In this document: one piece after another, positions 271 through 26,704 of the stretch | Position numbering within the stretch: the stretch's first letter is position 1 | Layout: each line of letters starts with the position of its first letter | Virus record (IMG/VR): IMGVR_UViG_3300025840_000207 | Coordinates: 1-26,704 of that record | Reading direction: 5' to 3' (one strand) | From: a virus | Lineage: Duplodnaviria; Caudoviricetes | DNA length: 26,704 nucleotides | Translations under genes and position numbers: made by a program | Notes under the pieces: generated by a model | The model's database searches: none | What the model saw: only the letters and a program-made list of their open reading frames with translations | Told to the model about the DNA's origin: nothing

Positions 271-712
271 CCCTGGGCTGACAGGCGGCATTACCTTTAT
301 ACAAGGCGATGAAGTGTCAGCACATAGAACACCTGTCGTTACAGTTAAGAAAAAGAAAATCCTTAATCTTGTAAGGATAGTTGATTATCTCAAACTGTTT
401 GAACCAGATATGGTTTATATTGAGAAGCAACAGTCTATGCCGAGGCAGGGAGTTGCTTCTACGTTCAAGACAGGACTGAACTATGGCCTGTATCTTGGTT
501 TGTTTGTGGCTCTTGATTTAAAATATACAGAAGTCAGAGCCGCAAAGTGGAAGAAAGACTTGAATGTTTCTTCTGATAAGGATTTAGCTAGAGCAAGAGC
601 AAGCTACCTACTACCCCAAGCTTCACACTGCTGGGAGTTGAAGTGCGAAGATGGGGTAGCGGAGTCAGCATTGATAGCTTACTGGGGTTTGAACTGTGGC
701 CAAGAACCGTAA
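251..712 (+). CDS. RuvC-like Holliday junction resolvase
   Basis: N-terminal CGIDPG, central YIEKQ, WKK, C-terminal DGVAESALIA: the acidic RuvC catalytic set. ATG 251 (GGAG upstream) preferred over TTG 227. Confidence 0.85.
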   Translation: MRVCGIDPGLTGGITFIQGDEVSAHRTPVVTVKKKKILNLVRIVDYLKLFEPDMVYIEKQQSMPRQGVASTFKTGLNYGLYLGLFVALDLKYTEVRAAKWKKDLNVSSDKDLARARASYLLPQASHCWELKCEDGVAESALIAYWGLNCGQEP

Positions 713-2295
713 GGGTCAAAGACAGGATTCTTAGCAAGCTCATCCTTGATAGCTTTGACACGATTGGCTCTTGAGTCGTTAGATACTTTGCCAAACAGGA
801 AGTCTTCCATCATTGAAAGCTGATTGGCTTTGTACTTGTTTAGCCATGTTTCGTCTGGCTTGAACCAGTTTGTGTAGGTTTCGGGAGAGCCAATAAACTC
901 TTTGAGGCATTCTGCTTGGACATCGTGCCTCGAAAGACCTGTGAGACAACACGCAACAAATAGCTTGTCAAGCTCTTGAGGGTCGAGAGACATGCAGTAG
1001 CTAAGTGGGCTAGTTCCATCAGCTTCAAAAGCATTATGAGCAGAAGTTTGGTGTTGCTCAATAAGTTTGAGATAATCAGGTTCAGTGTAGCCATCTGGTG
1101 TTTCTCCTCCAGGGAATATTGTTTGATGGTCTGCGTAGATGTTACCGACACGATTTATTGCTGAGTAAGTGTAGCCAAGTTTACGATGGATAAGCAGTGA
1201 TTTCATCAGCTTGCTCATTGTTACATCATCGGCGGCAGACCACATTTTGTTGAGTGCAAAGTCAGCGTAATAAGCATCAAGCAAATCTATCTGTGGGTTG
1301 CTGTAGGTCAGAGGCGTTACTTCTTCTTCTTCTTCCTCAACAGCCTCATCTTGAGCCTCCTGTGCTTCTTTAATGTCCTTCATAACCATTTCTTTGAAGT
1401 CAACGCTGTAACGATACGAGTTGTAGGTAATAACTAGAATCATATCTTGCTTGGCAAAGCCGTGGTCATCACCATATACGCCATCAAGTGTGCGACATTC
1501 AGGTGAGTCCCAATGGTATTGGTCTACAAGATAGATTACATCCATGTATTCTTTTCTGTAGTCCTCAACCATGCGGTAAATATGTGCGGCTTGTAGTTCT
1601 GCAAATGCTTCTCTGTTTGTAACAAACTCTTCCTCACCAAACAGGTCAGCTTCGATGCCAAGTTTTGCACGTTCTTCAGTGCCAATGTCGAAAAAAGCAG
1701 CACTTACAGGAATTTTTTGCTCTGTCATGGCACGTTTGACAGACTCAGCATGGAATGTCTCAAAGTCTTGGTCTAGATATTCATCTTGCTTTTGGTGATT
1801 ACCAAGCGTCAGAGCCTGTGCAACAGCCAAGTTGAAGCGGTAGGCACGGAACATCTCTTTAGCCTTGTCTGATAGCTCAGAGAGGCTTACACGCTGTTCT
1901 ACCCAGCGTTTGGTTTGACCAAAGCGTTTGGCTACAGAGTCAAAGTCCTCTGAACCGTCAGCAACAAGGGCTTGGATGACATCACACTCGTCAAGTGGAT
2001 GCATATCTTCACGCATCATGTTTGCATGAAGGCCAACCTCATTGTCATTGGATTCTAGTACAATGCAGTTGATGGGTGTTTTCTTGTCTTTGTAGACTTT
2101 GTTGAGGGCATCGAGGCGTCTGTTGCCATCGATGACGTTGTAGCCTTTACCATTCTCCACTACGACAAGATTGTGTAGCAAACCTTTGGATTGGATTGAG
2201 GCGGCAAGTTGAGCAATGCTCTCCCTGCTGGATTTTACTTTACGAACATTGTCGGGTGAGTGCTTTAGGTCACTCAGCGGAATCTGCTTCTGCAT
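679..2295 (-). CDS. Long ParB/Spo0J-family protein (plasmid/ICE type)
   Basis: LSDLKHSPDNVRK, LAASIQSKGLLHNLVV, VIDGNRRL (GxRR CTP-binding motif), ANMMREDMHPLDE, then HTH VAKRFGQTKRWVEQRVSL; 538 aa; GGAGG RBS. Confidence 0.85.
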   Translation of the reverse strand: MQKQIPLSDLKHSPDNVRKVKSSRESIAQLAASIQSKGLLHNLVVVENGKGYNVIDGNRRLDALNKVYKDKKTPINCIVLESNDNEVGLHANMMREDMHPLDECDVIQALVADGSEDFDSVAKRFGQTKRWVEQRVSLSELSDKAKEMFRAYRFNLAVAQALTLGNHQKQDEYLDQDFETFHAESVKRAMTEQKIPVSAAFFDIGTEERAKLGIEADLFGEEEFVTNREAFAELQAAHIYRMVEDYRKEYMDVIYLVDQYHWDSPECRTLDGVYGDDHGFAKQDMILVITYNSYRYSVDFKEMVMKDIKEAQEAQDEAVEEEEEEVTPLTYSNPQIDLLDAYYADFALNKMWSAADDVTMSKLMKSLLIHRKLGYTYSAINRVGNIYADHQTIFPGGETPDGYTEPDYLKLIEQHQTSAHNAFEADGTSPLSYCMSLDPQELDKLFVACCLTGLSRHDVQAECLKEFIGSPETYTNWFKPDETWLNKYKANQLSMMEDFLFGKVSNDSRANRVKAIKDELAKNPVFDPYGSWPQFKPQ

Positions 2296-2497
2296 CGGTT
2301 TCCTCCAATAATATAGTTACGTCCTTGGCTTCTATGCCAGTAAAGAACTCAAATGTTTTGCCGTCTGAAGCAGAGGCATAGACAGTCAGTGGACAATCAT
2401 GTTGCCCTTGATAGAACTTGATGGCAACAAAGTTTGGGTCATCAGTATATATGACAACTCTGGTACATTCGATAGTACCACTCATAGATGTGTACAT
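2270..2497 (-). CDS. Hypothetical protein, 75 aa
   Basis: Start shares one base with the upstream stop (TAATG); GGAGG upstream; collinear in the operon. Confidence 0.65.
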   Translation of the reverse strand: MYTSMSGTIECTRVVIYTDDPNFVAIKFYQGQHDCPLTVYASASDGKTFEFFTGIEAKDVTILLEETDAEADSAE

Positions 2498-2703
2498 TAT
2501 TTAGTCCTCCATACACGCCAAGTATCATCATCAATTTTACGCATTGTGCTTTGCCAGCCCTGTCTGCGTATAGCTTGACACATAGATACAGCTTGGCTTT
2601 TGCGTACATCAACGCTATCACCAACGCCCATTTTGAGAGCTACAGCACTGAACTGGCTGTAAGCATTGCGAGGCGGGATTGGTATATCGCTTCTGATTTT
2701 CAT
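2497..2703 (-). CDS. Small basic phage protein, possibly DNA binding
   Basis: MKIRSDIPIP...MGVGDSV...WRVWR pattern recurrent in small phage proteins; GGAGG RBS; abuts the upstream stop. Confidence 0.75.
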   Translation of the reverse strand: MKIRSDIPIPPRNAYSQFSAVALKMGVGDSVDVRKSQAVSMCQAIRRQGWQSTMRKIDDDTWRVWRTK

Positions 2704-2922
2704 TTAGTCCTCCATGATTTTGTCAGTCAGTGTCTTTGAAGCGAACGCTACGCCAATCCACAGGGGCGCACCAATCACTGAAACCAAGAGGGTCGGGTTG
2801 ATTCCCATCGCTATCATCATCAACATAATCGTAAACGATAGTGTTAGGTGAACAGTGACGAACCACCCAATCCAGCTTGCTTTGAGGCTGATTGGCTTTA
2901 TCTTGCGGATGTAATTTAGCAT
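2704..2922 (-). CDS. Small membrane protein (2 predicted TM helices)
   Basis: Two hydrophobic stretches (WIGWFVTVHLTLSFTIMLMMIAMGI; LLVSVIGAPLWIGVAFA); GAGGAG RBS. Confidence 0.75.
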   Translation of the reverse strand: MLNYIRKIKPISLKASWIGWFVTVHLTLSFTIMLMMIAMGINPTLLVSVIGAPLWIGVAFASKTLTDKIMED

Positions 2923-2924
2923 GT

Positions 2925-3089
2925 TTACTCCTCCTCATGCTTTACTTCACCATGACCTTCGCAAGTCTCGCAGTGGCGAAACTCACCGATTAACTCTCCT
3001 CCATACCTAAAGTCTGGGCTTGGCACTTCGTACTCGATAATGCACTCGCCCAGACATTCGGGGCATTCCACCCAAAATATATCAGGCAT
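2925..3089 (-). CDS. DnaJ-type zinc-finger miniprotein, 54 aa (not in ORF track)
   Basis: Hand translation MPDIFWVECPECLGECIIEYEVPSPDFRYGGELIGEFRHCETCEGHGEVKHEEE*; CPECLG and CETCEGHG motifs; fills the gap between neighbours. Confidence 0.75.
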   Translation of the reverse strand: MPDIFWVECPECLGECIIEYEVPSPDFRYGGELIGEFRHCETCEGHGEVKHEEE

Positions 3090-3255
3090 CTAATATTCCC
3101 TCTCTAATCATGTCTTGGATACGCCTGCCGTACCAACCCTGCAATTGCAGATAAAGGTTAGAGTCATAAATGTACTGCCATGCTTGAATAAACTCGTCCT
3201 CACTTCGAGGCGTTTCAATTCCTTCTGCTATCATCACGGCAATAGATGGAGTCAT
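3082..3255 (-). CDS. Conserved small phage protein (AWQ...LQGWYGR family)
   Basis: IAEG...QAWQYIYD...LQGWYGR motif seen in phage hypotheticals; ATG 3255 preferred over 3303 to avoid overlap, start uncertain. Confidence 0.7.
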   Translation of the reverse strand: MTPSIAVMIAEGIETPRSEDEFIQAWQYIYDSNLYLQLQGWYGRRIQDMIREGILDA

Positions 3256-3265
3256 TTGATAATTA

Positions 3266-3688
3266 TCATTTAAAGAACATGGGTCTGTAGTCTTCATAAC
3301 CATTCTCCATTGATATTTTAGCTTTGTTAAACATTATCATAACCTGTAGGTCATGTGTATCACCTATGAATTTTACGTCTTTCTCGAACTGTGTCAAAGA
3401 AGTTTGAGGCGGTACACTGTTACCTTCAGAGTCTGTACCCATGAATAACCCTTTGTTTACAAGGGGTTGTGGGTAATTCTTATGAATCCAGAAGAACCTT
3501 TGGTCTGCATACAAGCCTTCGTCATCGATGTACACACCATCGCCATTGTCATAGAGGCGTACAAATGTGAACATCCTAGCTTCGATAAGGTCTGATATCC
3601 ATTCATAACCAGTAGGGTCAATCTCTGACTTGACCAAAGATACCTTCTGTTCTTTTGGATTAACGATAGTGTCTAGTGATTCAACCAT
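3266..3688 (-). CDS. Hypothetical protein, DUF3846-like
   Basis: DGVYIDDEGL...PLVNKGLFMGTDSEG motif; AAGGAG RBS. Confidence 0.7.
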   Translation of the reverse strand: MVESLDTIVNPKEQKVSLVKSEIDPTGYEWISDLIEARMFTFVRLYDNGDGVYIDDEGLYADQRFFWIHKNYPQPLVNKGLFMGTDSEGNSVPPQTSLTQFEKDVKFIGDTHDLQVMIMFNKAKISMENGYEDYRPMFFK

Positions 3689-3698
3689 TGTGAACTCC

Positions 3699-3743
3699 TT
3701 GTGAATATTTCACAAAACAGGGTGTAAATGTGCATATTGCACA
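3699..3743. promoter_or_regulatory. Two tandem palindromic operator-like sites
   Basis: TTGTGAA-TAT-TTCACAA (3699-3715) and TGTGCA-TAT-TGCACA (3729-3743), 29 bp apart, between the ssb terminator and the next RBS. Confidence 0.6.
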
Positions 3744-3777
3744 AAAAAGGGCGGTGGCAGTCAGGTCGCCACCACCC
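3743..3777 (-). terminator. Rho-independent terminator after ssb
   Basis: - strand GGGTGGTGGCG-ACCTGAC-TGCCACCGCCC then TTTTTT; G.U pairs fit the - strand. Confidence 0.8.
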
Positions 3778-3803
3778 TCCTTCCATTCTAGGGGAACGAC
3801 TTA

Positions 3804-4220
3804 CTAGAATGGAATATCGTCATCCGCACCTGATGGTGAGCCAGTCTGAGGCGCACCTTCGGATGATGTCCCCTTGCTGGCTAGGCGGAATGTTGAGCCT
3901 GCACCAGCTAGTTTGACCTTGAATGAACGTTGCTTCTGGCCTTCCTTCTCATACTCTTCGATGATTGGGAAACCCTGGACAAATACAGTAGTGCCTTTGG
4001 CGGCATACTTCTCAATGACGTTAGACACAAGGCCCTTGCCATTGCTACCGTCCCAAGCTTCTACACGATACCAGTGGGTTTTCTCCACTTTCTCGCCTGA
4101 CTTGTTGGTGTAGCCCTCATTGACGGCAACAGAGAAGTTAGCAACCTTAGTACCGTTTACGTCACGGATTTCTGGTTCACTACCGATGTTACCTGAGATT
4201 GTGATTTGTGCGAAGTTCAT
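3804..4220 (-). CDS. ssb: Single-stranded DNA-binding protein
   Basis: ITISGNIGSEPEIR, VANFSVAVNE, EKTHWYRVEAW, acidic tip DDDIPF; ATG 4220 has an AAGGAG RBS, so the track's TTG 4316 start is rejected. Confidence 0.95.
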   Translation of the reverse strand: MNFAQITISGNIGSEPEIRDVNGTKVANFSVAVNEGYTNKSGEKVEKTHWYRVEAWDGSNGKGLVSNVIEKYAAKGTTVFVQGFPIIEEYEKEGQKQRSFKVKLAGAGSTFRLASKGTSSEGAPQTGSPSGADDDIPF

Positions 4221-4325
4221 GTCGATTTCTCCTTGCGTTGACATGGTTAGGTTTGAGGCATCACGTCTATCCTCTGTCACTGCATTGCGACCCTCCATGG
4301 TGGGTAACAGTGTCAATCTCCATTG

Positions 4326-4496
4326 TTATTTGGTTTTTCTTCTTTGCATTGCTGCTTTGATTGTTGGTGAAGAAACTTGTGTGCCAGTGCCTCGTCTCTG
4401 TTCTGTTCTGTAAGCCCAGAAACGAAACAACTTATCTTTATTGGCTTTCAGATGTTGAGAAAACTCGGTGACTGTCATTTCTGTTGCACGTTTCAT
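4326..4496 (-). CDS. Small basic hypothetical protein, 56 aa (not in ORF track)
   Basis: MKRATEMTVTEFSQHLKANKDKLFRFWAYRTEQRRGTGTQVSSPTIKAAMQRRKTK*; ATGA overlap with the upstream stop. Confidence 0.65.
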   Translation of the reverse strand: MKRATEMTVTEFSQHLKANKDKLFRFWAYRTEQRRGTGTQVSSPTIKAAMQRRKTK

Positions 4497-4777
4497 CGTG
4501 GTCTAATCTCCACCCATTCATAACCAAACTTTTTTCTGATTGGCTTTTTGTAGCCATTGAGCTTCTTCAATGCATAAAGTGTTGCTGAAATTATGCACCC
4601 CCCTATCACTGCCGCCATCATGCCAGCAAATGTGCCAGCAAACATAGCAACGAGCAAGATAGTTGAGGCGATGTCGATAGGGATGTCAAGCCAAAGAACT
4701 TTTTTGAAGTCGAATTTGGCTAACAAAAATAAAATAGCTAGTGCTGAGAATATGCCAGCGATGATATAGAAAACCAT
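4493..4777 (-). CDS. Small membrane protein (about 3 TM helices)
   Basis: Hydrophobic segments with a basic C-terminal tail; AAGGAGG RBS. Confidence 0.8.
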   Translation of the reverse strand: MVFYIIAGIFSALAILFLLAKFDFKKVLWLDIPIDIASTILLVAMFAGTFAGMMAAVIGGCIISATLYALKKLNGYKKPIRKKFGYEWVEIRPR

Positions 4778-4826
4778 AATGTCCTCCTTGTCAGTCTGAG
4801 GCGTTCCACCTCGGTGTTGGTTACAG

Positions 4827-4868
4827 AAAAAAAAGGTGGGAAGCCAGGGCGTGATGCCCCAGCCTCCC
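4827..4868 (-). terminator. Rho-independent terminator
   Basis: - strand GGGAGGCTGGGGC-ATCAC-GCCCTGGCTTCCC-ACC-TTTTTTTT, just after the stop at 4885. Confidence 0.75.
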
Positions 4869-4884
4869 GATGTGTATCGTAGGG

Positions 4885-5517
4885 CTACTGAACCCTACGA
4901 CCATATTTCTCTGTGTAAGCTTGACGCTGTTTGGGTGTCCATGACATGTAGACATCCATGGTGACCTTCTTGCGAAAGTGCGACCACTTCTTAGTCTTGC
5001 GTTCGGTCTCAAGCTGTTGCTTGGACTTGTAAGCATCCATCGTGTAGCCTGTGCGTCTCTCTATCTCAGGACGTACCTTGGTCTTGAGGACGTAGTGCAT
5101 ATTCTTGATGTATGCGTACTGCTCACGCATACGCTCAATGCGGTTGTCAATGTCTGACTGCTGGGTGACGGTAATCTCTGGGTCAGAAATTACATGGTCT
5201 TCGTTCTCGTTCTTGAGACGGTTGGCATAGTTATGAATGTCATCCATGAGATACTCAAGGTTGCGGATGCGAGAATCAATGAGCTTGCAACAGAGTGTCA
5301 AGTCATTGCCATCGCCATGAAACATGATAGCCGCTGTCTCAAGTTGAGCGTAGTGCATCTGCCATGCCTCATCGTATGAACGCTTGGCTTGCTCTGAGAA
5401 TGTGTCAAACTGTAGACGCTTGGCGATGTTGTCGAGATACTCGGTAGTTACATCATCCAGCGTAGGTAGCTTGGTTGGTGTAGGTTCAATGTTAGTTAGG
5501 TCAATATCAAAAGGCAT
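4885..5517 (-). CDS. Hypothetical helical/coiled-coil protein, 210 aa
   Basis: Long ORF; AAGGAG RBS; heptad-like helical segments; basic C-terminus. Confidence 0.8.
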   Translation of the reverse strand: MPFDIDLTNIEPTPTKLPTLDDVTTEYLDNIAKRLQFDTFSEQAKRSYDEAWQMHYAQLETAAIMFHGDGNDLTLCCKLIDSRIRNLEYLMDDIHNYANRLKNENEDHVISDPEITVTQQSDIDNRIERMREQYAYIKNMHYVLKTKVRPEIERRTGYTMDAYKSKQQLETERKTKKWSHFRKKVTMDVYMSWTPKQRQAYTEKYGRRVQ

Positions 5518-5529
5518 GTCTAGTTCTCC

Positions 5530-5772
5530 TTACGCCAAGTGTGGTAGTTCTGGTTGGTCAAAGTAATGCTCACCATGCACTGTATAGTATGCATCGTATG
5601 CTTCGTTTATCTTGTTGTTGTAAAGGTCATCGAGTCTGTCTAGTAGAAGTCCATGTCTACCAGCGTTTGTCTCTGTCGATAACTCTTCCATCAACCGACT
5701 GTATTCTTTCCACAAGAACTGAATCTGTTCTGCTTCTAAGTTTCTGGTCATATCAAAATGTTCTCTAACCAT
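5530..5772 (-). CDS. Hypothetical acidic protein, 80 aa
   Basis: AAGGAG RBS; collinear in the leftward operon. Confidence 0.75.
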   Translation of the reverse strand: MVREHFDMTRNLEAEQIQFLWKEYSRLMEELSTETNAGRHGLLLDRLDDLYNNKINEAYDAYYTVHGEHYFDQPELPHLA

Positions 5773-5794
5773 GTGTCGTTCTCCTTGTCGTAAT

Positions 5795-5819
5795 GGGGTA
5801 GATGCTAATCACCTACCCC
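5795..5819 (-). other. Intergenic RNA hairpin without U-tract
   Basis: - strand GGGGTAGGTG-ATTAG-CATCTACCCC, 10-bp stem with one G.U; possible processing or stability element. Confidence 0.55.
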
Positions 5820-5827
5820 GATTTGGC

Positions 5828-5998
5828 TTATTGGATTGTTATGTCGATGACTGATGCAAGATACATTGCACGTTCGGTGTCACCGTCAGCTAATGCTTGC
5901 TCAAGTTCCGATGTAACTTGATTCTCGTAGTCTTGGTCAATGTTGCCAAGACGCTGTTCTTCTTGCTGGTCTGTTAGTAATGTTTTGTAATAACCCAT
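5828..5998 (-). CDS. First gene of the leftward operon; acidic 56-aa protein (not in ORF track)
   Basis: MGYYKTLLTDQQEEQRLGNIDQDYENQVTSELEQALADGDTERAMYLASVIDITIQ*; GAGGAG RBS. Confidence 0.75.
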   Translation of the reverse strand: MGYYKTLLTDQQEEQRLGNIDQDYENQVTSELEQALADGDTERAMYLASVIDITIQ

Positions 5999-6024
5999 GA
6001 GTTTCTCCTCTACGTTATAGGGCT

Positions 6025-6544
6025 AACACATACACACGATTGTGCATGATATAGACGGGGCGACTATGAGTTGCGAAATGTCAAGGATTTGTTTTGTCGA
6101 GAGACAGGCTCGATTTGTCAGGACGCAGAGCCGCACCACTGTACGGCGACAGGTTATGCACAGACCGACAAAAGAAATACTTTACATAACGTCAGCTTAG
6201 ATGGAAGCAACCTACCGGATTGCTTGCATCTTAGCGCAGTGGTTCGTGTTCGAAGAGTCATCATTCCATGATATCATCACAACTCGTGTGTGTGTGTTGT
6301 CAATCTTCAGCGTGATGACTCGCAAGCAAATCAGCTAAGACACCTTAGATTTGTCCTACAAATCTTAGGATGTCTCTGATGCCGTCTTGCCACGACCGCC
6401 AGAGAGTTAAGGCATGTGCTAACTCACTGTGAGTACCCCTCGATGGGGTACGAAACAGTTGATTTCGACACTCTACTTGAGAGATAAACTGTCGAAATCC
6501 ACCTATAAAAGATATGTAAGACAATGAGATGCAAAAAGTGAGTT
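6025..6544. repeat. Non-coding region of nested imperfect inverted repeats (folded ssDNA element or structured ncRNA)
   Basis: Pairings read directly: 6025-6052/6271-6298; 6078-6099/6166-6187; 6195-6210/6220-6235; 6255-6263/6313-6321; hairpin 6338-6375; hairpin 6433-6451; 6461-6470/6490-6499; 6421-6428/6537-6544. Confidence 0.8.
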
Positions 6545-6573
6545 GACAGCCGTAGATGAAGTATACCTATAAT
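6543..6573 (+). promoter_or_regulatory. Sigma70-like promoter upstream of terS, 19-bp spacer
   Basis: TTGACA (6543-6548)-N19-TATAAT (6568-6573). Confidence 0.6.
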
Positions 6574-6600: not shown

Positions 6601-7035
6601 ATGACAACAGCAGATAAACAACAGCAAGAGAAGTATAAAGGCTCTATCGTCCCAATGGATGAGATAGAGAAACATGCACCAGTAGCTCAAGCAGGGAATG
6701 ATAAACTGACTGAGCCGCAAGCTGAATTAGTACACATGATATTGCATAACGGTTGCAACCCAAGTGAAGCAGCTAAAGCATTGGGTAGAAACAAAGCATG
6801 GGCTTACACAACCCTGAAAAAACAACATGTTATAGAGTATAGACAACAGTTGGCTATGATGACTTTGGGATGGGACGCAACACAGGCAATGGCAACGATG
6901 AGAGAACTGCTGAATAGCAAGTCACAGTATGTAAGACTTGAAGCCGCTAGAGACTTGATGGACAGAGCAGGATTAAGACAGGATGCTGTTAGAACGCCTA
7001 GTACTGCGGTGCAGATAAACTTTAACGTGGACTAG
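6601..7035 (+). CDS. terS: Terminase small subunit
   Basis: LTEPQAELV, HTH NPSEAAKALG, ELLNSKSQYVRLEAARDLMDRAG, beta-strand tail VQINFNVD; upstream of TerL. ATG 6601 preferred because ATG 6556 lies inside the promoter. Confidence 0.75.
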   Translation: MTTADKQQQEKYKGSIVPMDEIEKHAPVAQAGNDKLTEPQAELVHMILHNGCNPSEAAKALGRNKAWAYTTLKKQHVIEYRQQLAMMTLGWDATQAMATMRELLNSKSQYVRLEAARDLMDRAGLRQDAVRTPSTAVQINFNVD

Positions 7036-20658: not shown

Positions 20659-23600
20659 ATGAACAATATTGACTGGAAATTTATTGAAGAGCGTGAAGGA
20701 AACAAGCTAACTGGCTATGTTCCTAATGCTAAAAACAGTAAATCTGGTGTTACTATTGCCAGTGGTTTTGACCTTGGTGCTAGAAACTTGTCAGATTTAT
20801 CTGGTCTTCCAGAAGATATTATAACTTTGCTAAAACCTTTTCTTGGCTTCAAAGGTGCTGAAGCACAAGAAATGGCAAAGAACCTTAAAGTAAGCCAAAC
20901 TCAAGCTGAGACTATAAATGAGTTTGCACATAAACAAGCCGCAGAAAATCTTGCATCTAAATGGAAAGCAAAAACAGGACAAGACTTTGCGGAGCTACCT
21001 AAAAACAAAGCCACAGTAATTGCATCTGTAGCTTTCCAGTATGGTGATTTAGAGACAAAAACTCCTAACTTCTGGAGACAGGTAACAGAAGATGATTGGG
21101 GTGCGGCTATAAAAAATCTTCGTGATTTTGGTGACGATTACGATACCAGAAGAAACTTAGAAGCTGACTTTGTAGAATCTGGCATGTCTGAGACAGAGCT
21201 TGAATCAAAAAAAAAATTTGAACAAGAGTTAGCTAGAGACAAGCAATACGGCATACAAGAAGCTATGATATCTGGCGAAGAGGGTGGTCTAGGTTCTGCT
21301 CCAACTGCTGATACAGCTCAGCCCCCTCAAGAAGTCATTGAAGATTTAGACATTCCTGCTGAAACAGTAGAAACGCTTCCTGTAACTGAAGAGGTTATGG
21401 AAGAACCTAATATTCAAGAAGTTCCTCAAGATAGCGGTTTGTCTGAAACATTGCCTACTCCCGGTGATATTTACGGTGGATATACACAGCTTTATGGAAA
21501 TGGTGAGCAATACGGTCAAAGAATACCATCTAAGCTAAATGAAGCTGATGAGTATGATTATCGTGTTTTTGATGAAGATGGCTGGGATGTATGGGGTGCT
21601 GCCTTTAGACAGCACAACTTTATTCCATCTCTTGTAAGAATGATTAGTGCTACTGATTCAAAGTATCAACCTGTAGCAGATTATGACCCTTTTCAAGACA
21701 AAGAGTTGATTAGCAAAGTGGGTAGTGACGGTACTTGGAGGTTTAGGAACTCTAAGTCACCAGCAGAATCAATGATGCTGTATGAAAGAATGCAGCAAGA
21801 CGCAGAAGACATGATGCTTTTGAACTCTACACCTTCTGTTAGCAAACAGCTAGTTGCTGGATTAGCAACGCCAACGACATTTGCTCCTATTGCTCCTTTG
21901 AAGGTATTGCAATCAGCAAATAGAACTAGACGTTTTGTTGGTGGTGCGGCATTTACAGCCGCATTAACTGCACCAGAACAGTTGCTTATTGATAGCCAGA
22001 ATACTCAAAGAGACACTAGCCATACAGCTATAATATTAGCAGGGGCTAGTTTGCTTGGTGGTGGTTTATCGGTTGCTTTTGGAAAAGCACCTAAGATTAT
22101 ACCTCAAGAGCAAAAACTATTAACCAATAAAACAACAAGTGATGGCGGTGAAGGATTGTATAGGCCTGCTGGTGCTGGTGTAAGCCCTGAAAAAGCAAGG
22201 GAAGCCGCTTATGCTCAAATGGAAAAAGAAGCCTTAGTGGAAACTGGTATTGGGGTTGAGAAAATAGGTTGGAATCCTGTTACCAGAATGCTGAAAAGTG
22301 AAAACCCATTTGTCAGAAACCTTGCTGTTGGCATGGTTGATGTTGGTGGAATGATGCAGAAAAAGGTTACAGACCTTGGGCTTGAAATGGACCAGTCTGT
22401 AGAAACAACCTTTAGAACTACATATTTCTCAAAGCTATTAGATAGCGTGAGAGCTTCTGATGAAGCTTATCTTGCATATAGAAACATTGCTGTACCAAAG
22501 ACAGATGCTGGTCGTGCTGTAACAATGATGAAAACAAAAGTTACAGATATGGTAAAAGGCGGTGATTCATTAGGAGAAGTACAGTTTAGGCATCGTGTAA
22601 GTATGGCTATGCGTAGAGGTGATGTAGATGAAATGAATGATGCGGCATCACCTTATGTAACAAGAGCCGCAAAAGAATACAGAAAGACTTTTAACTTCAT
22701 AAAGAAGGAAGCTGAATCTGTAAGGTTGTTTGAACGTGAGTTGAAAAAACAAATAGATGAAGCTGTAGAACCGGGTCTAAAAGCCGAACTAACTGAAAAG
22801 CTAAAGAAGCTTAGAGAGCAAGGCGTTACTGCTAATAATGCTGTAAGCTATCTTCCTAGAATATATCGTGTTGATAAGATTATGGATAATCAGCAAGGCT
22901 TTTTATCTATTGTAGAAAATTATGCTAGAAGAAGTTTACGACTAGATGCACAAGCGGCTAAATCTTACGCTAACGATGTATTAGATACTGTTACACACAG
23001 AAGGCCTTATGTAGACCTAGAAGGTGTTAGCGATAATCTTGATTGGATTAAAACACCATCTGGCGCACAAGCTAGAACACTAGATATTCCTGATGATTTG
23101 CTAGAAGAGTTTCTTGAAAATGATGTAGAAACACTTCTTCGTCATCATGTAAAGACTATGGGTATGGATATTGAGCTTACTCGTAAGTATGGTGATGTAA
23201 GTATGTCTGGTGTCCTTGATGATATAACCCAAGAGTACAACAGGCTTATGGGTAAAGTTGCGGAAAAAATAGATAGTATAGTTACTGGTCAAGGCATTTC
23301 CATAAAAGTCCACAGAGGAAGCGGCGGTAAAGGCAAAGTAAGCTTTGAAGAGTCTGCCTTAGGAGACGGTCTTTATTTTGCAACAAATGCAAAAACAGCA
23401 TCTAGGTTTGGTAAACAAGTAGATGAAGTAAATATTACTTTAAAAAACCCATTGAAAATTACATCAGATGATGAGCTTATGGCTTTGTTTAGACAGGCTG
23501 GTTTAAACGCAGACGAACTCCAAGCCGCTAAAAAAGCCTATGATGATTTTATGTCTGCTATGGCAGAAAAAAGAAAAAATCTTGGAACAGGAAAAAGTTT

Positions 23601-25266
23601 ATCTGAAAACAAAAAACTTACTGATGAATGGTTTGCAGAGTTTGACTCTGGATATAATAAAGTTGCCTCAAGTTATTCTGCTTTAAGACAGTCGTATATG
23701 AAACAATTGCGTCAGTGGGCAGAATCTAATGGTCACGATTCTATTTCAATAAATTTTGGCTTAGATGATTTTGACCAAGTAACCAAAGGCAAACTTACTC
23801 CATTAAAAATAATGGATGAATACGCCAATGTTACAGGAAAAGGTGGCAAACACCAAATATTAGAAGAAACCTTTTCTCATGACCAAGTGGTTGTTTTTAA
23901 CAAAAATTTTGATGATTACGGAAAGGTAGGGGCAACAAGGAATCAAGCAGATATTGATAGATTAGAAAAAGCAATGGAAGCAGACCTTCGTGATGTTCGT
24001 GGTCTGCGTGACAGATTGCGTGGTACATACGGTGCATCTAAAGACCCCCATGCTTTGTCTAGCAGATTTGTAAGAAACATGAAATCTATCAATACTCTTG
24101 CTGGAATGGGCAGTGCTGTTGTGTCTTCTGTTCCTGATATTGCTAGACTTGTTATGGTTGAAGGCTTTGAGAATGCTTATGCAAAAGGATTTTCTACATT
24201 ATTTAACAGGCAAGCAAAGCTAGTACGTCAATTAGGCAAAAAAGAATTAGACCAAGCGGCTATTGCCGTAGACGCAACTCTTGGCTTAAGAAGCCATGCT
24301 ATGTCTGATTTGGGTGATTTGTTTGGGTCAAGATATACTATTGAAAGAAAATTAAACCAAGCAACAGGTATGTTCTTTTTATTCAATGGTTTGAATATAT
24401 GGAATCAGGCACTTAAAGAAATGGCTGGTAACATGACAATGTTAAGGATGACTGAGGGTTTAATGAAACCTTGGTCAAAATTAACAAAAGCAGACCAAGA
24501 AAAGTTTTTAAAGAATGGCATTGGTCAGCAAGACCACATGCGTATGCAACAGCAAATACGTCAGTTTGGTAGGCAAGAAGGCAAAGAATGGCTACCTGAA
24601 TCAGAAGCTTGGACTGATGCCACAATGAGATTGAAGTTTAGAAATGCTCTAAATCAGAACGTAGAACGCATAATTATAACGCCTGGGGCTGGTGACAGAG
24701 CCTTATGGACATCTACTGAGTTTGGCTCAATGCTTACTCAGTTTAAGTCTTACGGTCAGGGGGCTATGGTAAGAATGCTTACTGCTGGCTTGCAAGAGAA
24801 AGACGGTGCTTTTTGGCAGGGTGCATTTTTGATTGTAGGTTTAGCTGGGATTATAAATGAAATCAAAAGATTACAGTACGGGATTGAATCCGATGAGGAT
24901 GTTGGAACAAAGCTAATCAATGCTATTGATAGGTCTGGCATAGGTGGATGGTTTACAGACGTTAATAATGCTATTGAAAAGATTAGTGACCATAAATTAG
25001 GTATGCGTCCTTTCTTTACTGACCAGCCACAGTATCAAATGCCTTTTGGAGCAAAGGCTGGTGCAGTTGCAGGACCTACAGCAAGCAATTTAATCAATAT
25101 GGCAGACGTTGCATCTGATGTTATTACATTTAACGCAGATGAGAAAACCTTAAGAAACTCTAGGTTTTTCTTTCCAACAGGCAATTTATTTTACTTAGAC
25201 CCCATATATGATGGAGTTTTTGGGGAAGGTAATGTGAATAGACAGCAAACTGGCAATAGGGAATAG
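20659..25266 (+). CDS. Large internal virion (ejection) protein, gp16-like, with N-terminal pesticin-type lysozyme and internal ART-like domain
   Basis: IDWKFIEEREG...GYVP...SGVTIASGFDLG...SVAFQYG...RRNLEA; SYLPRIY; C-terminal LTQFKSY and hydrophobic segments; internal HRG...GLYFAT...KNPL...GHDSI...QVVVF. Confidence 0.85.
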   Translation: MNNIDWKFIEEREGNKLTGYVPNAKNSKSGVTIASGFDLGARNLSDLSGLPEDIITLLKPFLGFKGAEAQEMAKNLKVSQTQAETINEFAHKQAAENLASKWKAKTGQDFAELPKNKATVIASVAFQYGDLETKTPNFWRQVTEDDWGAAIKNLRDFGDDYDTRRNLEADFVESGMSETELESKKKFEQELARDKQYGIQEAMISGEEGGLGSAPTADTAQPPQEVIEDLDIPAETVETLPVTEEVMEEPNIQEVPQDSGLSETLPTPGDIYGGYTQLYGNGEQYGQRIPSKLNEADEYDYRVFDEDGWDVWGAAFRQHNFIPSLVRMISATDSKYQPVADYDPFQDKELISKVGSDGTWRFRNSKSPAESMMLYERMQQDAEDMMLLNSTPSVSKQLVAGLATPTTFAPIAPLKVLQSANRTRRFVGGAAFTAALTAPEQLLIDSQNTQRDTSHTAIILAGASLLGGGLSVAFGKAPKIIPQEQKLLTNKTTSDGGEGLYRPAGAGVSPEKAREAAYAQMEKEALVETGIGVEKIGWNPVTRMLKSENPFVRNLAVGMVDVGGMMQKKVTDLGLEMDQSVETTFRTTYFSKLLDSVRASDEAYLAYRNIAVPKTDAGRAVTMMKTKVTDMVKGGDSLGEVQFRHRVSMAMRRGDVDEMNDAASPYVTRAAKEYRKTFNFIKKEAESVRLFERELKKQIDEAVEPGLKAELTEKLKKLREQGVTANNAVSYLPRIYRVDKIMDNQQGFLSIVENYARRSLRLDAQAAKSYANDVLDTVTHRRPYVDLEGVSDNLDWIKTPSGAQARTLDIPDDLLEEFLENDVETLLRHHVKTMGMDIELTRKYGDVSMSGVLDDITQEYNRLMGKVAEKIDSIVTGQGISIKVHRGSGGKGKVSFEESALGDGLYFATNAKTASRFGKQVDEVNITLKNPLKITSDDELMALFRQAGLNADELQAAKKAYDDFMSAMAEKRKNLGTGKSLSENKKLTDEWFAEFDSGYNKVASSYSALRQSYMKQLRQWAESNGHDSISINFGLDDFDQVTKGKLTPLKIMDEYANVTGKGGKHQILEETFSHDQVVVFNKNFDDYGKVGATRNQADIDRLEKAMEADLRDVRGLRDRLRGTYGASKDPHALSSRFVRNMKSINTLAGMGSAVVSSVPDIARLVMVEGFENAYAKGFSTLFNRQAKLVRQLGKKELDQAAIAVDATLGLRSHAMSDLGDLFGSRYTIERKLNQATGMFFLFNGLNIWNQALKEMAGNMTMLRMTEGLMKPWSKLTKADQEKFLKNGIGQQDHMRMQQQIRQFGRQEGKEWLPESEAWTDATMRLKFRNALNQNVERIIITPGAGDRALWTSTEFGSMLTQFKSYGQGAMVRMLTAGLQEKDGAFWQGAFLIVGLAGIINEIKRLQYGIESDEDVGTKLINAIDRSGIGGWFTDVNNAIEKISDHKLGMRPFFTDQPQYQMPFGAKAGAVAGPTASNLINMADVASDVITFNADEKTLRNSRFFFPTGNLFYLDPIYDGVFGEGNVNRQQTGNRE

Positions 25267-25273
25267 ATAAAGT

Positions 25274-26704
25274 ATGGCTACTATAGAAATTGCAGATAAT
25301 GACGCTAGAGTCCAATACACACAGGCCGTTGTTGCTAGTACTACGCAATTAACGATTGATTTCCCATTCTTTGACGTTGATGACATCAATGTTATTGTAA
25401 CAACTGCGGCTGGTGTTGATACTACGCTGTCCAGAGGTACAGGTACTGGTACATTTGCTGTTACAGGAACTGCGGTAGATGATGGATTTTCTGGTGGATA
25501 TATTACTCTTGGCGACAATTATAGCGCAGGAACTGATACATTCACTATTTTTAGGGACATACCTGTAGCTAGAACTACAGATTTCCCAACATCAGGACCT
25601 TTTAATATCTCGTCACTCAATACTGAGTTAGACAAGATTATTGCTATTGAGCAAGAGTTAGAGACTAAGGTTAGCCGTACAATGAAGCTGTCAGATTCTG
25701 ACACTGCCGCTTCAATTACACTACCTTCATCAGCAGCTAGAGCGAACAAGTTTCTATCATTTGATGCCAACGGTGCTGTAACGGTAACAACTACTATTGG
25801 TACATATCAGGGAACTGATACAACAACTACCACAACTGGCTATGTAAAAAACGATTTAGTTAAATCTACAACTACAGCACAATTAAATAATGTTTATATC
25901 TGTATTGCAGATAGTCCCAGTGGCACATTGCTTACAAACACAGCTTATTGGGAACTGGTTGTAGATGCTGTATCAGCCGCTACGTCAGCTACCAATGCGG
26001 CTAACAGTGCATCGGCTGCCTCTACAAGCGCAACAAATGCCGCTACAAGCGAAACCAATGCGGCAACTAGCGAGGCTAATGCCGCAACATCGGAAGCAAA
26101 TGCTGCCACCTCTGAGACTAATGCAGCTACTTCTGAGACAAATGCGGCGACATCTGCTACTAATGCCGCTAACAGTGCATCTGCGGCAGAGGCTACATTC
26201 GACCTATTTGATGATGCGTATCTAGGTGCAAAGGCCAGTGACCCAACACTGGACAATGACGGCAACGCATTACAGGATGGTGCGTTGTACTTTGACACAA
26301 CCAACAATGTGATGAAGGTTTACGACCTCGGCACGACAACTTGGCTTCGGCTAACACCTACCGTTGCCAATCAAACAAACATTAACACAGTAGCTGGCAT
26401 AGCCAGTGATGTAACCACTGTTGCAGGGGTAAGCAGTAATGTAACTACTGTTGCCGGAGTTTCTGCTAATGTGACTACGGTTGCTGGGGTATCATCTGAT
26501 GTAACCACAGTAGCAGGTATTTCTTCTAATGTAACTACTGTGGCTGGCAACAGCGCAGATATAACAACAGTAGCTGGGATATCATCTGATGTTAGTGCGG
26601 TAGGTGCTGTAGCGGCTAACGTCACAACCGTTGCAAACAACCTTACAGATATTAATGCTTTTGCTAATACTTACTTTATTGGGGCAACCGCACCATCCTC
26701 GCCT
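25274..26704 (+). CDS. Tail fibre (T7 gp17-like N-terminal anchor), truncated by the window end (not in ORF track)
   Basis: Open from ATG 25274 to the end: MATIEIADNDARVQYT...DFPFFDVDDINV...TIFRDIPVARTTDF...LNTELD; YLGAKASDPTLDNDGNALQDGALYF. Confidence 0.9.
   Translation, partial: MATIEIADNDARVQYTQAVVASTTQLTIDFPFFDVDDINVIVTTAAGVDTTLSRGTGTGTFAVTGTAVDDGFSGGYITLGDNYSAGTDTFTIFRDIPVARTTDFPTSGPFNISSLNTELDKIIAIEQELETKVSRTMKLSDSDTAASITLPSSAARANKFLSFDANGAVTVTTTIGTYQGTDTTTTTTGYVKNDLVKSTTTAQLNNVYICIADSPSGTLLTNTAYWELVVDAVSAATSATNAANSASAASTSATNAATSETNAATSEANAATSEANAATSETNAATSETNAATSATNAANSASAAEATFDLFDDAYLGAKASDPTLDNDGNALQDGALYFDTTNNVMKVYDLGTTTWLRLTPTVANQTNINTVAGIASDVTTVAGVSSNVTTVAGVSANVTTVAGVSSDVTTVAGISSNVTTVAGNSADITTVAGISSDVSAVGAVAANVTTVANNLTDINAFANTYFIGATAPSSP
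25974..26187 (+). repeat. 21-bp coding repeats (NAATSET/A heptads) in the tail fibre
   Basis: About 10 heptads with synonymous divergence; coiled-coil shaft. Confidence 0.85.
26381..26640 (+). repeat. 30-bp coding repeats (VTTVAGxSxx) in the tail fibre
   Basis: About 8-9 decapeptide units, e.g. GTAACCACTGTTGCAGGG / GTAACTACTGTTGCCGGA. Confidence 0.85.

Follow-up and report, generated by a model that had tools for sequence, protein, structure and literature searches.

A conserved, strand-specific fold-back beside terS of a tailed phage as a likely single-stranded DNA promoter

Genomic setting and stability of the fold-back

The window, by which we denote the entire stretch of 26,704 nucleotides that was analysed, contains a fold-back of 275 bases, which is located between the terS, terL, portal and capsid genes on one side and a leftward operon (5998 to 679) on the other and which heads the latter (Table 1). 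Among the products of this operon, the ParB-like protein aligns with YfjB of the F plasmid at 33% over 168 amino acids, a likeness that is confined to its first two, N-terminal, domains, and it matches at least 5000 plasmid records. One of these plasmid relatives resides beside psiB, psiA and ardA, another on pNL1 near ArdC. When compared to the PDB, the model of the protein matched only the N-terminal domains of ParB, Noc and KorB and no hidden initiator was seen. In a recent report, YfjB/HerB is described as a leading-region protein induced on entry (bioRxiv 2026.07.07.736705). The 210-residue protein of the same operon is conserved and predicted to be all-helical; it found no fold match in Pfam, PHROG, Atlas or the PDB, and the copy of a relative found no match on plasmids.

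Table 1. Coordinates of features in the window. Entries within the fold-back that name a function are predictions.
Feature	Positions	Strand	Basis or remark
Leftward operon: small ORFs, 210-aa helical protein, SSB, weakly DUF3846-like protein, ParB-like protein	679–5998	-	gene search
ParB-like protein, 538 aa	679–2295	-	leftward operon
SSB	3804–4316	-	leftward operon
210-aa helical protein	4885–5517	-	leftward operon
Outer helix P1, 5' arm; predicted to form the template strand downstream of the bubble	6025–6051	+	pairing retained in 17 relatives, with one-sided changes to G.T
Template segment of about 10 nt, unpaired in the family-conserved register; predicted template side of pre-melted bubble	6052–6061	+	constrained fold; 10–12 nt at this place in class A
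Spacer duplex P2, template side; overlaps hairpin 6060–6074	6062–6078	+	GACT 6062–6065 with 6256–6259; TTGCG 6071–6075 with 6235–6239
-35 hexamer TTGACA, template-arm copy	6079–6084	-	best hexamer at least 5/6 in 47/55 elements; core pairs lack two-sided change
Variable apex with small hairpin motif common to these phages	6100–6165	+	26 viral stretches contain the pattern, almost all from this phage group
-35 partner TTTACA, non-template copy, C.T mismatch at -33	6181–6186	+	partner counts in 55 elements
Two hairpins inserted in non-template spacer	6195–6255	+	72 nt from TTTACA to CATCAT in linear DNA
-10(a) CATCAT immediately behind P2; hexamer predicted to act as -10 in the fold	6259–6264	+	template spacer of 16–19 in 24/25 class A elements
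P3, a small hairpin of 5 bp with a loop of 3 nt, on the non-template side of the bubble	6260–6272	+	94% of cells paired in 17 relatives
-10(b) of extended type, TG-A-TATCAT, pairs with 6046–6051	6269–6277	+	T, G, T, A, T invariant in 17/17 aligned class A elements
3' arm of P1 with GT run	6278–6298	+	alignment of relatives
Possible ordinary leftward duplex promoter (edge promoter), TTGACA-19 nt-GATGAT with TG	6273–6303	-	-35 at 6303–6298, -10 at 6278–6273
Second structured tract, mosaic of hairpin modules common to relatives	6299–6535	+	z -6.0 (+), -5.9 (-)
Linear terS promoter TTGACA-19 nt-TATAAT, internal control	6543–6573	+	19-nt spacer in 41/41 distinct copies

By capsid and terminase, the closest cultured relative is the Pelagibacter phage Hodr (47% and 57%). 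The first-pass annotation had regarded the phage as a T7-like podophage, which is borne out by its T7-like virion genes, whereas an RNA or DNA polymerase was found neither in the window nor in four near-complete relatives (G001–G004, comprising L263–L271, 35–39 kb). The genomes of these relatives encode a RecE-like exonuclease, a Sak annealing protein, an HTH protein, RuvC and in some cases an S24 repressor-like protein, and they contain a repressor/Cro-like divergent pair. Among their submitted reading frames, which comprise most non-structural ORFs of at least 48 residues and few structural genes, Pfam and PHROG searches, which remote homologues could escape, returned no polymerase, primase, helicase, initiator, integrase or relaxase. 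Exact terminal repeats were not found in the four genomes. The largest protein of the window, an internal virion protein of 1535 residues (20659–25266), has pesticin-like lysozyme and ART-PolyVal ADP-ribosyltransferase-like domains and no match to an RNA polymerase, and the end of a tail-fibre-like gene (25945–26640) contains tandem repeats with units of 21 and 30 nt.

The terS gene has a linear promoter, which combines perfect hexamers with a 19-nt spacer and may require an activator or supercoiling. As this promoter overlaps the called start of the reading frame at 6556, terS probably starts at 6601. In the tract that separates the promoter from the fold-back, the + strand shows the lower folding energy in 46 of 53 cases and no Rfam match was obtained. 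Its modules are shuffled among relatives, at times into the fold-back itself. The tract includes a motif of some 14 nt, which is conserved and located close to where the tract begins, and a hairpin with a conserved loop of six nucleotides on a varying stem, an arrangement that recalls lambdoid boxB. On the other side of the fold-back, a short motif (6003–6016) adjoins the ribosome-binding site that serves the first gene of the leftward operon and is shared by many relatives. When read on the + strand, it looks similar to a -35 box, but its distance to the element varies.

Both stems described in the first-pass annotation are found in the sequence, the outer one (6025–6052 with 6271–6298) with a shift of register in its middle and the inner one (6078–6099 with 6166–6187) with 19 of 22 positions forming Watson-Crick pairs. 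Equally present are the hexamers described with them, TTGACA on the - strand (6084–6079) and its partner TTTACA (6181–6186), and TATCAT on the - strand (6051–6046) and its partner TG-A-TATCAT (6269–6277), with the claimed distance of 27 bp between the hexamers in linear DNA. When both strands were folded with DNA and RNA parameters, the region proved stable beyond chance in all four folds. With DNA parameters, the + strand of 6020–6305 folds with -59.7 kcal/mol (z -6.63) and the - strand with -49.8 kcal/mol (z -4.80), the respective z values with RNA parameters being -5.41 and -4.49, and none of 200 shuffles attained the native stability in any of the folds. The element is the most stable among 189 + strand windows of 280 nt scanned across the contig.

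Conservation of the fold upstream of terS

To follow the fold-back in related phages, we assembled 80 terS-related loci, of which 72, in addition to the window, offered at least 500 nt of upstream sequence. From the 63 distinct regions among these, 57 candidates were extracted and the removal of two truncated cases resulted in 55 elements, whose counts refer to related sequences and not to independent events. The loci left out were duplicates, too short, cut by a contig end (L004, L046) or of another type that lacks the GT run (L017, L025). This third type of fold-back, which is found at the same position upstream of terS in L017, L025 and L374, shows no clear promoter boxes. The 55 elements span about 240 to 470 nt, are located 250–460 nt from terS and occupy a constant position a few tens of bases before the ribosome-binding site, where they point into the operon.

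The fold is conserved and strand-specific, and its stems are real. The DNA fold is lower in energy on the + strand in all 55 elements, with a mean difference of 8 kcal/mol. As proposed from the window, G.T pairs favour this strand, with 241 versus 137 in the folds of the elements, while the ratio in the outer helix (62 G.T to 0 A.C) carries no weight as evidence, since the 3' arm had been selected as a GT run. Covariation is present in related terS-upstream regions. In 17 class A elements that were picked by eye, 88.8% of the cells of a structure of 41 pairs are paired and 19 of these pairs show two-sided changes. None of 500 shuffles scored as high and only 32–50% of cells were paired when the structure was slid along the alignment, which is not to be read as a probability, since the structure was derived from these same, related sequences. 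RNAalifold recovered the structure in part, owing to gaps in the alignment. The outer helix keeps its 3' arm constant, while changes on its 5' arm lead to G.T wobbles that are tolerated only by the + strand.

A sequence profile built from the 17 class A elements matched the element in the window with an E value of 6e-13 and found one copy in each searched phage stretch in which it matched. No match was obtained in the searched stretches of the F leading region, pNL1, Hodr, HTVC010P and MEP301, and a blastn comparison with phage and plasmid records gave no match for the region either. Versions of the element are found at terS identities of 31–37%, where GTCAA is still paired with TTTAC (L294, L199, L200), a pairing also seen in L384 with unrelated arms. 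A scan of bacterial genomes for a host yielded a single 9-kb contig of a metagenome-assembled genome (L083); this contig ends short of the element and its binning may be erroneous. HTVC010P, in whose record the leftward early genes are closely followed by the end of the sequence, has no such fold (z -1.6). In Hodr, a different and nearly symmetric fold-back that is not matched by the profile (L082, 12190–12373; z -7.3 and -6.8) covers the ribosome-binding site of the first early gene of an operon with ArdC and SSB.

The stability of the fold with RNA parameters (z -5.4) raises the question of whether the + strand might act as a structured RNA, for example as a 6S-like decoy that binds the sigma70 holoenzyme via a central bubble. 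The G.U bias would fit RNA equally well, and a census of loops found GNRA tetraloops to be enriched (10 versus 2.6) and GNA triloops not, with no preference for DNA over RNA. The element further resembles 6S RNA as a rod with a central bubble akin to an open promoter and the template on the 5' arm. Conversely, 6S is an RNA without a consensus -35 box, and the exact sequence of the -35 described below suits a reading of B-form DNA. Besides, the length of the elements varies by nearly twofold, neither a + strand promoter upstream nor a terminator downstream is found in the window, and Rfam returned nothing at gathering score, 6S included, whether for the window's element or for those of 19 loci, with two chance matches by E value. 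A tRNA-like Rfam match is located elsewhere, on the - strand within the leftward operon of one relative (L016, 708–780). GNRA loops are also not particular to RNA, since they are found together with GNA-type loops such as GAA in the single-stranded Frpo/ssi DNA sequences listed in supplement 7 of one source (PMC11541004). We thus regard a role as structured RNA as very unlikely. Contigs from RNA runs, which as assemblies convey neither strand nor level, do not extend over 6042–6309 in the window, where two of them end near the 5' arm with loose ends, and they cover the 3' half of the element at terS-like depth in L004.

Promoter-like hexamers and their register

The template-arm -35 (TTGAC) is conserved in sequence. 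Among the 55 elements, its partner reads TTTAC in 29, TTGAC or TTGAT in ten and TCGAC in two, with 14 cases not being assigned; the boxes are degenerate in L006, L010, L024 and L036. Across the 17 class A elements, the five core pairs of the -35 show no two-sided change, in contrast to the apex-proximal helix, where 12 of 13 pairs do. This difference argues for a selection of the boxes on their sequence, unlike that helix. The pair at -33 is unpaired in 15 of the 17 elements, mostly as a C.T mismatch, and it is the template C at this position that is read by sigma region 4.

The geometry suggested for the window was not upheld in its remaining parts. In 52 of 54 elements, the main pairing partner of the 17 template bases that follow the -35 is the 3' arm (in L038 and L039 only marginally), which rules out the hairpin at 6060–6074 as a family feature. 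It exists, and the lowest-energy fold of the window keeps it, with the family register being 8.5 kcal/mol costlier, but a preference for it was found only in the window and in L007. As relatives do not retain the proposed A-rich UP-like tract, it was likewise discarded. In the family register, a second -10-like hexamer besides the proposed TATCAT, CATCAT at 6259–6264 (-10(a)), is found at canonical distance from the -35. In class B, -10(a) reads TAACCT, TACCCT, TATCAT or TACCAT in ten of 20 elements and starts with TA but lacks the T at -7 in the other ten, and the template spacer scatters from 15 to 25 bases when assigned by script and measures 15–16 when assigned by eye. The -10(a) runs into the P3 hairpin, which is followed by the second hexamer, -10(b), which covaries with the 5' arm at its middle bases in the 17 aligned class A elements and whose counts in the spacer scan were set by the search pattern and thus carry no evidential weight. 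As L375 and L380 keep the first hexamer but have lost the T at -7 of the second, -10(a) appears to be the preferred of the two. The 10–12 template bases that face the 13-nt hairpin would correspond to the size of an open-complex bubble. In the window and several relatives, hairpins are inserted in the spacer of the 3' arm and the fold persists. The gap on this arm measures 37–106 nt to the script-chosen -10 in many other elements, and the arm of elements with such insertions is therefore no linear -35/-10 promoter.

These hexamers also bear on a conventional explanation, in which transcription would rely on ordinary duplex promoters, the leftward one at the edge of the element and a rightward one of extended -10 type, with the fold-back being a regulatory by-product such as a leader structure, a cruciform or an operator repeat. 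The edge promoter is found with a spacing of 19–20 nt in 13 of 55 elements, in 21 with any spacing between 16 and 20 nt and looser hexamers, and its -35 alone in 26. It may be a real duplex promoter, because the terS promoter has the same 19-nt spacer in all distinct copies. Moreover, many class A elements of simple build show TTTAC-16 to 20 nt-CATCAT/CACAAT on the 3' arm by itself, a rightward TG-n-TAnnnT is found somewhere in 37 of 55 elements, with the extended -10 of class A being potentially able to act rightwards in duplex DNA, and the -10(b) site is partly palindromic. On the other hand, the edge promoter is missing by the same count in 42 of 55 elements, and it is also absent from L058 and L061. 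The inner -35, kept in 47 of 55, is the more widely conserved of the two without being accompanied by a linear -10: a leftward -10 at 16–19 nt was found in only two elements, both of which were mis-anchored by the script. The right half of the -10(b) palindrome is unconserved, and a leftward leader RNA or a cruciform would require the fold of the - strand, which is worse in every element. We thus consider an explanation by duplex promoters unlikely. The earlier claim that the promoter would work only when single-stranded was too strong in view of the duplex promoter at the edge.

A further explanation would assign the fold-back, independently of RNA polymerase, to packaging, end-processing or recombination beside terS. 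The proximity to terS and the adjoining hairpin-rich mosaic tract would agree with such a function, which in turn does not explain why -35- and -10-like hexamers are conserved at promoter spacing or why the element is oriented towards the ribosome-binding site. As contig ends do not pile up near the element either, we find this assignment highly improbable.

Predicted mode of action and relation to known systems

With moderate confidence, and on grounds of sequence comparison, we favour the assignment of the element as an Frpo-like single-stranded DNA promoter, possibly also a primer site, that is not homologous to Frpo. The + strand of 6025–6298 is predicted to form a branched rod that likely serves as a promoter for the host sigma70 RNA polymerase. 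In its favour, the analysis shows the sequences themselves, a pairing pattern and a strand bias that recur among relatives, conserved -35- and -10-like hexamers and the genes of the operon. Against it stand the duplex promoter at the edge of the present element, the lowest-energy fold of the window with its hairpin at 6060–6074, the class B elements and those with degenerate boxes, and the fact that, among the submitted reading frames of the four near-complete relatives, no relaxase or rolling-circle initiator was found that would supply single-stranded DNA. The first-pass annotation had already proposed a promoter of the leftward operon that is assembled by folding of the + strand, and the comparison of relatives supports this role, though with the altered geometry described above.

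In the folded + strand, the -35 would consist of TGTCAA (6079–6084) paired with TTTACA (6181–6186), followed by a spacer duplex of 16 template bases from which the inserted hairpins would be looped out. CATCAT (6259–6264) would serve as -10, with only its first base paired, and would face about ten unpaired template bases and the small hairpin in an arrangement resembling an open complex. The host sigma70 RNA polymerase would transcribe the leftward operon encoding SSB and the ParB-like protein from a start near 6050, or near 6040 if TATCAT (6272–6277) were used as alternative -10, and the RNA made from this start could also prime synthesis of the missing strand. The most speculative step concerns the origin of the single strand. 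The + strand might be exposed by 5'-to-3' resection of the genome end on the terS side, which would fit the polarity because it frees a 3' tail of this strand. The nuclease could be that of the host or the RecE-like exonuclease of the phage, acting soon after entry or during recombination-driven replication, and single-strandedness would be needed over a few hundred bases only. Where present, the edge promoter could take over once the duplex is restored.

The similarity to Frpo concerns architecture and context. In both cases, the template strand contains a long imperfect fold-back of similar size that directly precedes a ribosome-binding site, and -35 and -10 boxes are assembled by folding, which is clear in class A, weaker in class B and fails in a few elements. 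In both, genes for SSB and a ParB-like protein (yfjB/herB) follow downstream on the same strand, a likeness limited to the N-terminal domains of ParB and a generic SSB. Conversely, there is no sequence homology (best blastn E value 0.23 against Frpo1/2 of F), the element resides in a tailed dsDNA phage beside terS, with no oriT found and no relaxase among the submitted reading frames of the four near-complete relatives, and it carries tandem -10-like hexamers around a small hairpin. In duplex form, the inner -35 of the element lacks a linear -10, but an edge promoter is found here and in 13 of 55 elements. Single-stranded promoters read by host RNA polymerase are known in conjugative plasmids, whose DNA enters the recipient as one strand, and are unexpected in a dsDNA phage, and the open-licence literature that was searched contained no report of a sigma70 fold-back single-stranded DNA promoter in a tailed dsDNA phage.

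Strand-specific folds that are recognised by host RNA polymerase are also found in the sso of rolling-circle plasmids and in the minus-strand origin of M13, and the element shares with them the strand-specific fold and the predicted recognition by this enzyme. They differ in that no rolling-circle initiator was found in Pfam and PHROG searches and that the element points into an operon. Coliphage N4, a podophage with a dsDNA genome, uses short single-stranded hairpins as early promoters for its own virion RNA polymerase; the present element differs by its sigma70-type boxes, a fold of about 275 nt and the lack of any phage RNA polymerase among the genes found here. The relationship to single-strand origins leads to a variant in which the fold-back would mainly act as such an origin, with RNA polymerase making a short primer on a displaced or resected + strand, host polymerase III rebuilding the duplex and the early genes being transcribed from elsewhere. 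The same structural evidence would support this function, as would the single copy per searched stretch and the genomes of the four relatives, in whose reading frames no polymerase, primase, helicase or initiator was found. Frpo-type promoters are described to both transcribe and prime (PMC9849209, PMC11541004, PMC12672017, bioRxiv 2026.01.09.698686), and Skadi is described as relying on host polymerases (PMC10504331). A function mainly as origin would not account for the position of the element, which is always found before the ribosome-binding site pointing into the operon. In addition, no HUH initiator was found and a looser scan detected no other leftward promoter in many elements. We thus judge it quite unlikely.

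If the element indeed acts as a single-stranded DNA promoter, a tailed phage with a dsDNA genome would expose and use single-stranded DNA at a defined step, so that, for example, an attack on its DNA end could serve as trigger of early genes, and phages in which no polymerase, primase or initiator was found would have a way to start replication. The natural variants provide a ready mutational series, and the three predicted start sites (at about 6050 and 6040 in the fold and at about 6266 for the edge promoter) can be distinguished. As a wider and doubtful conjecture, this widespread group of marine podophages, which has no recognisable replication genes, may necessarily expose one genome end as a single strand when it enters the cell, with one fold-back acting as first promoter and primer origin, and may express a gene set like that of plasmid leading regions (SSB and a HerB-like ParB) in the manner of a conjugating plasmid.
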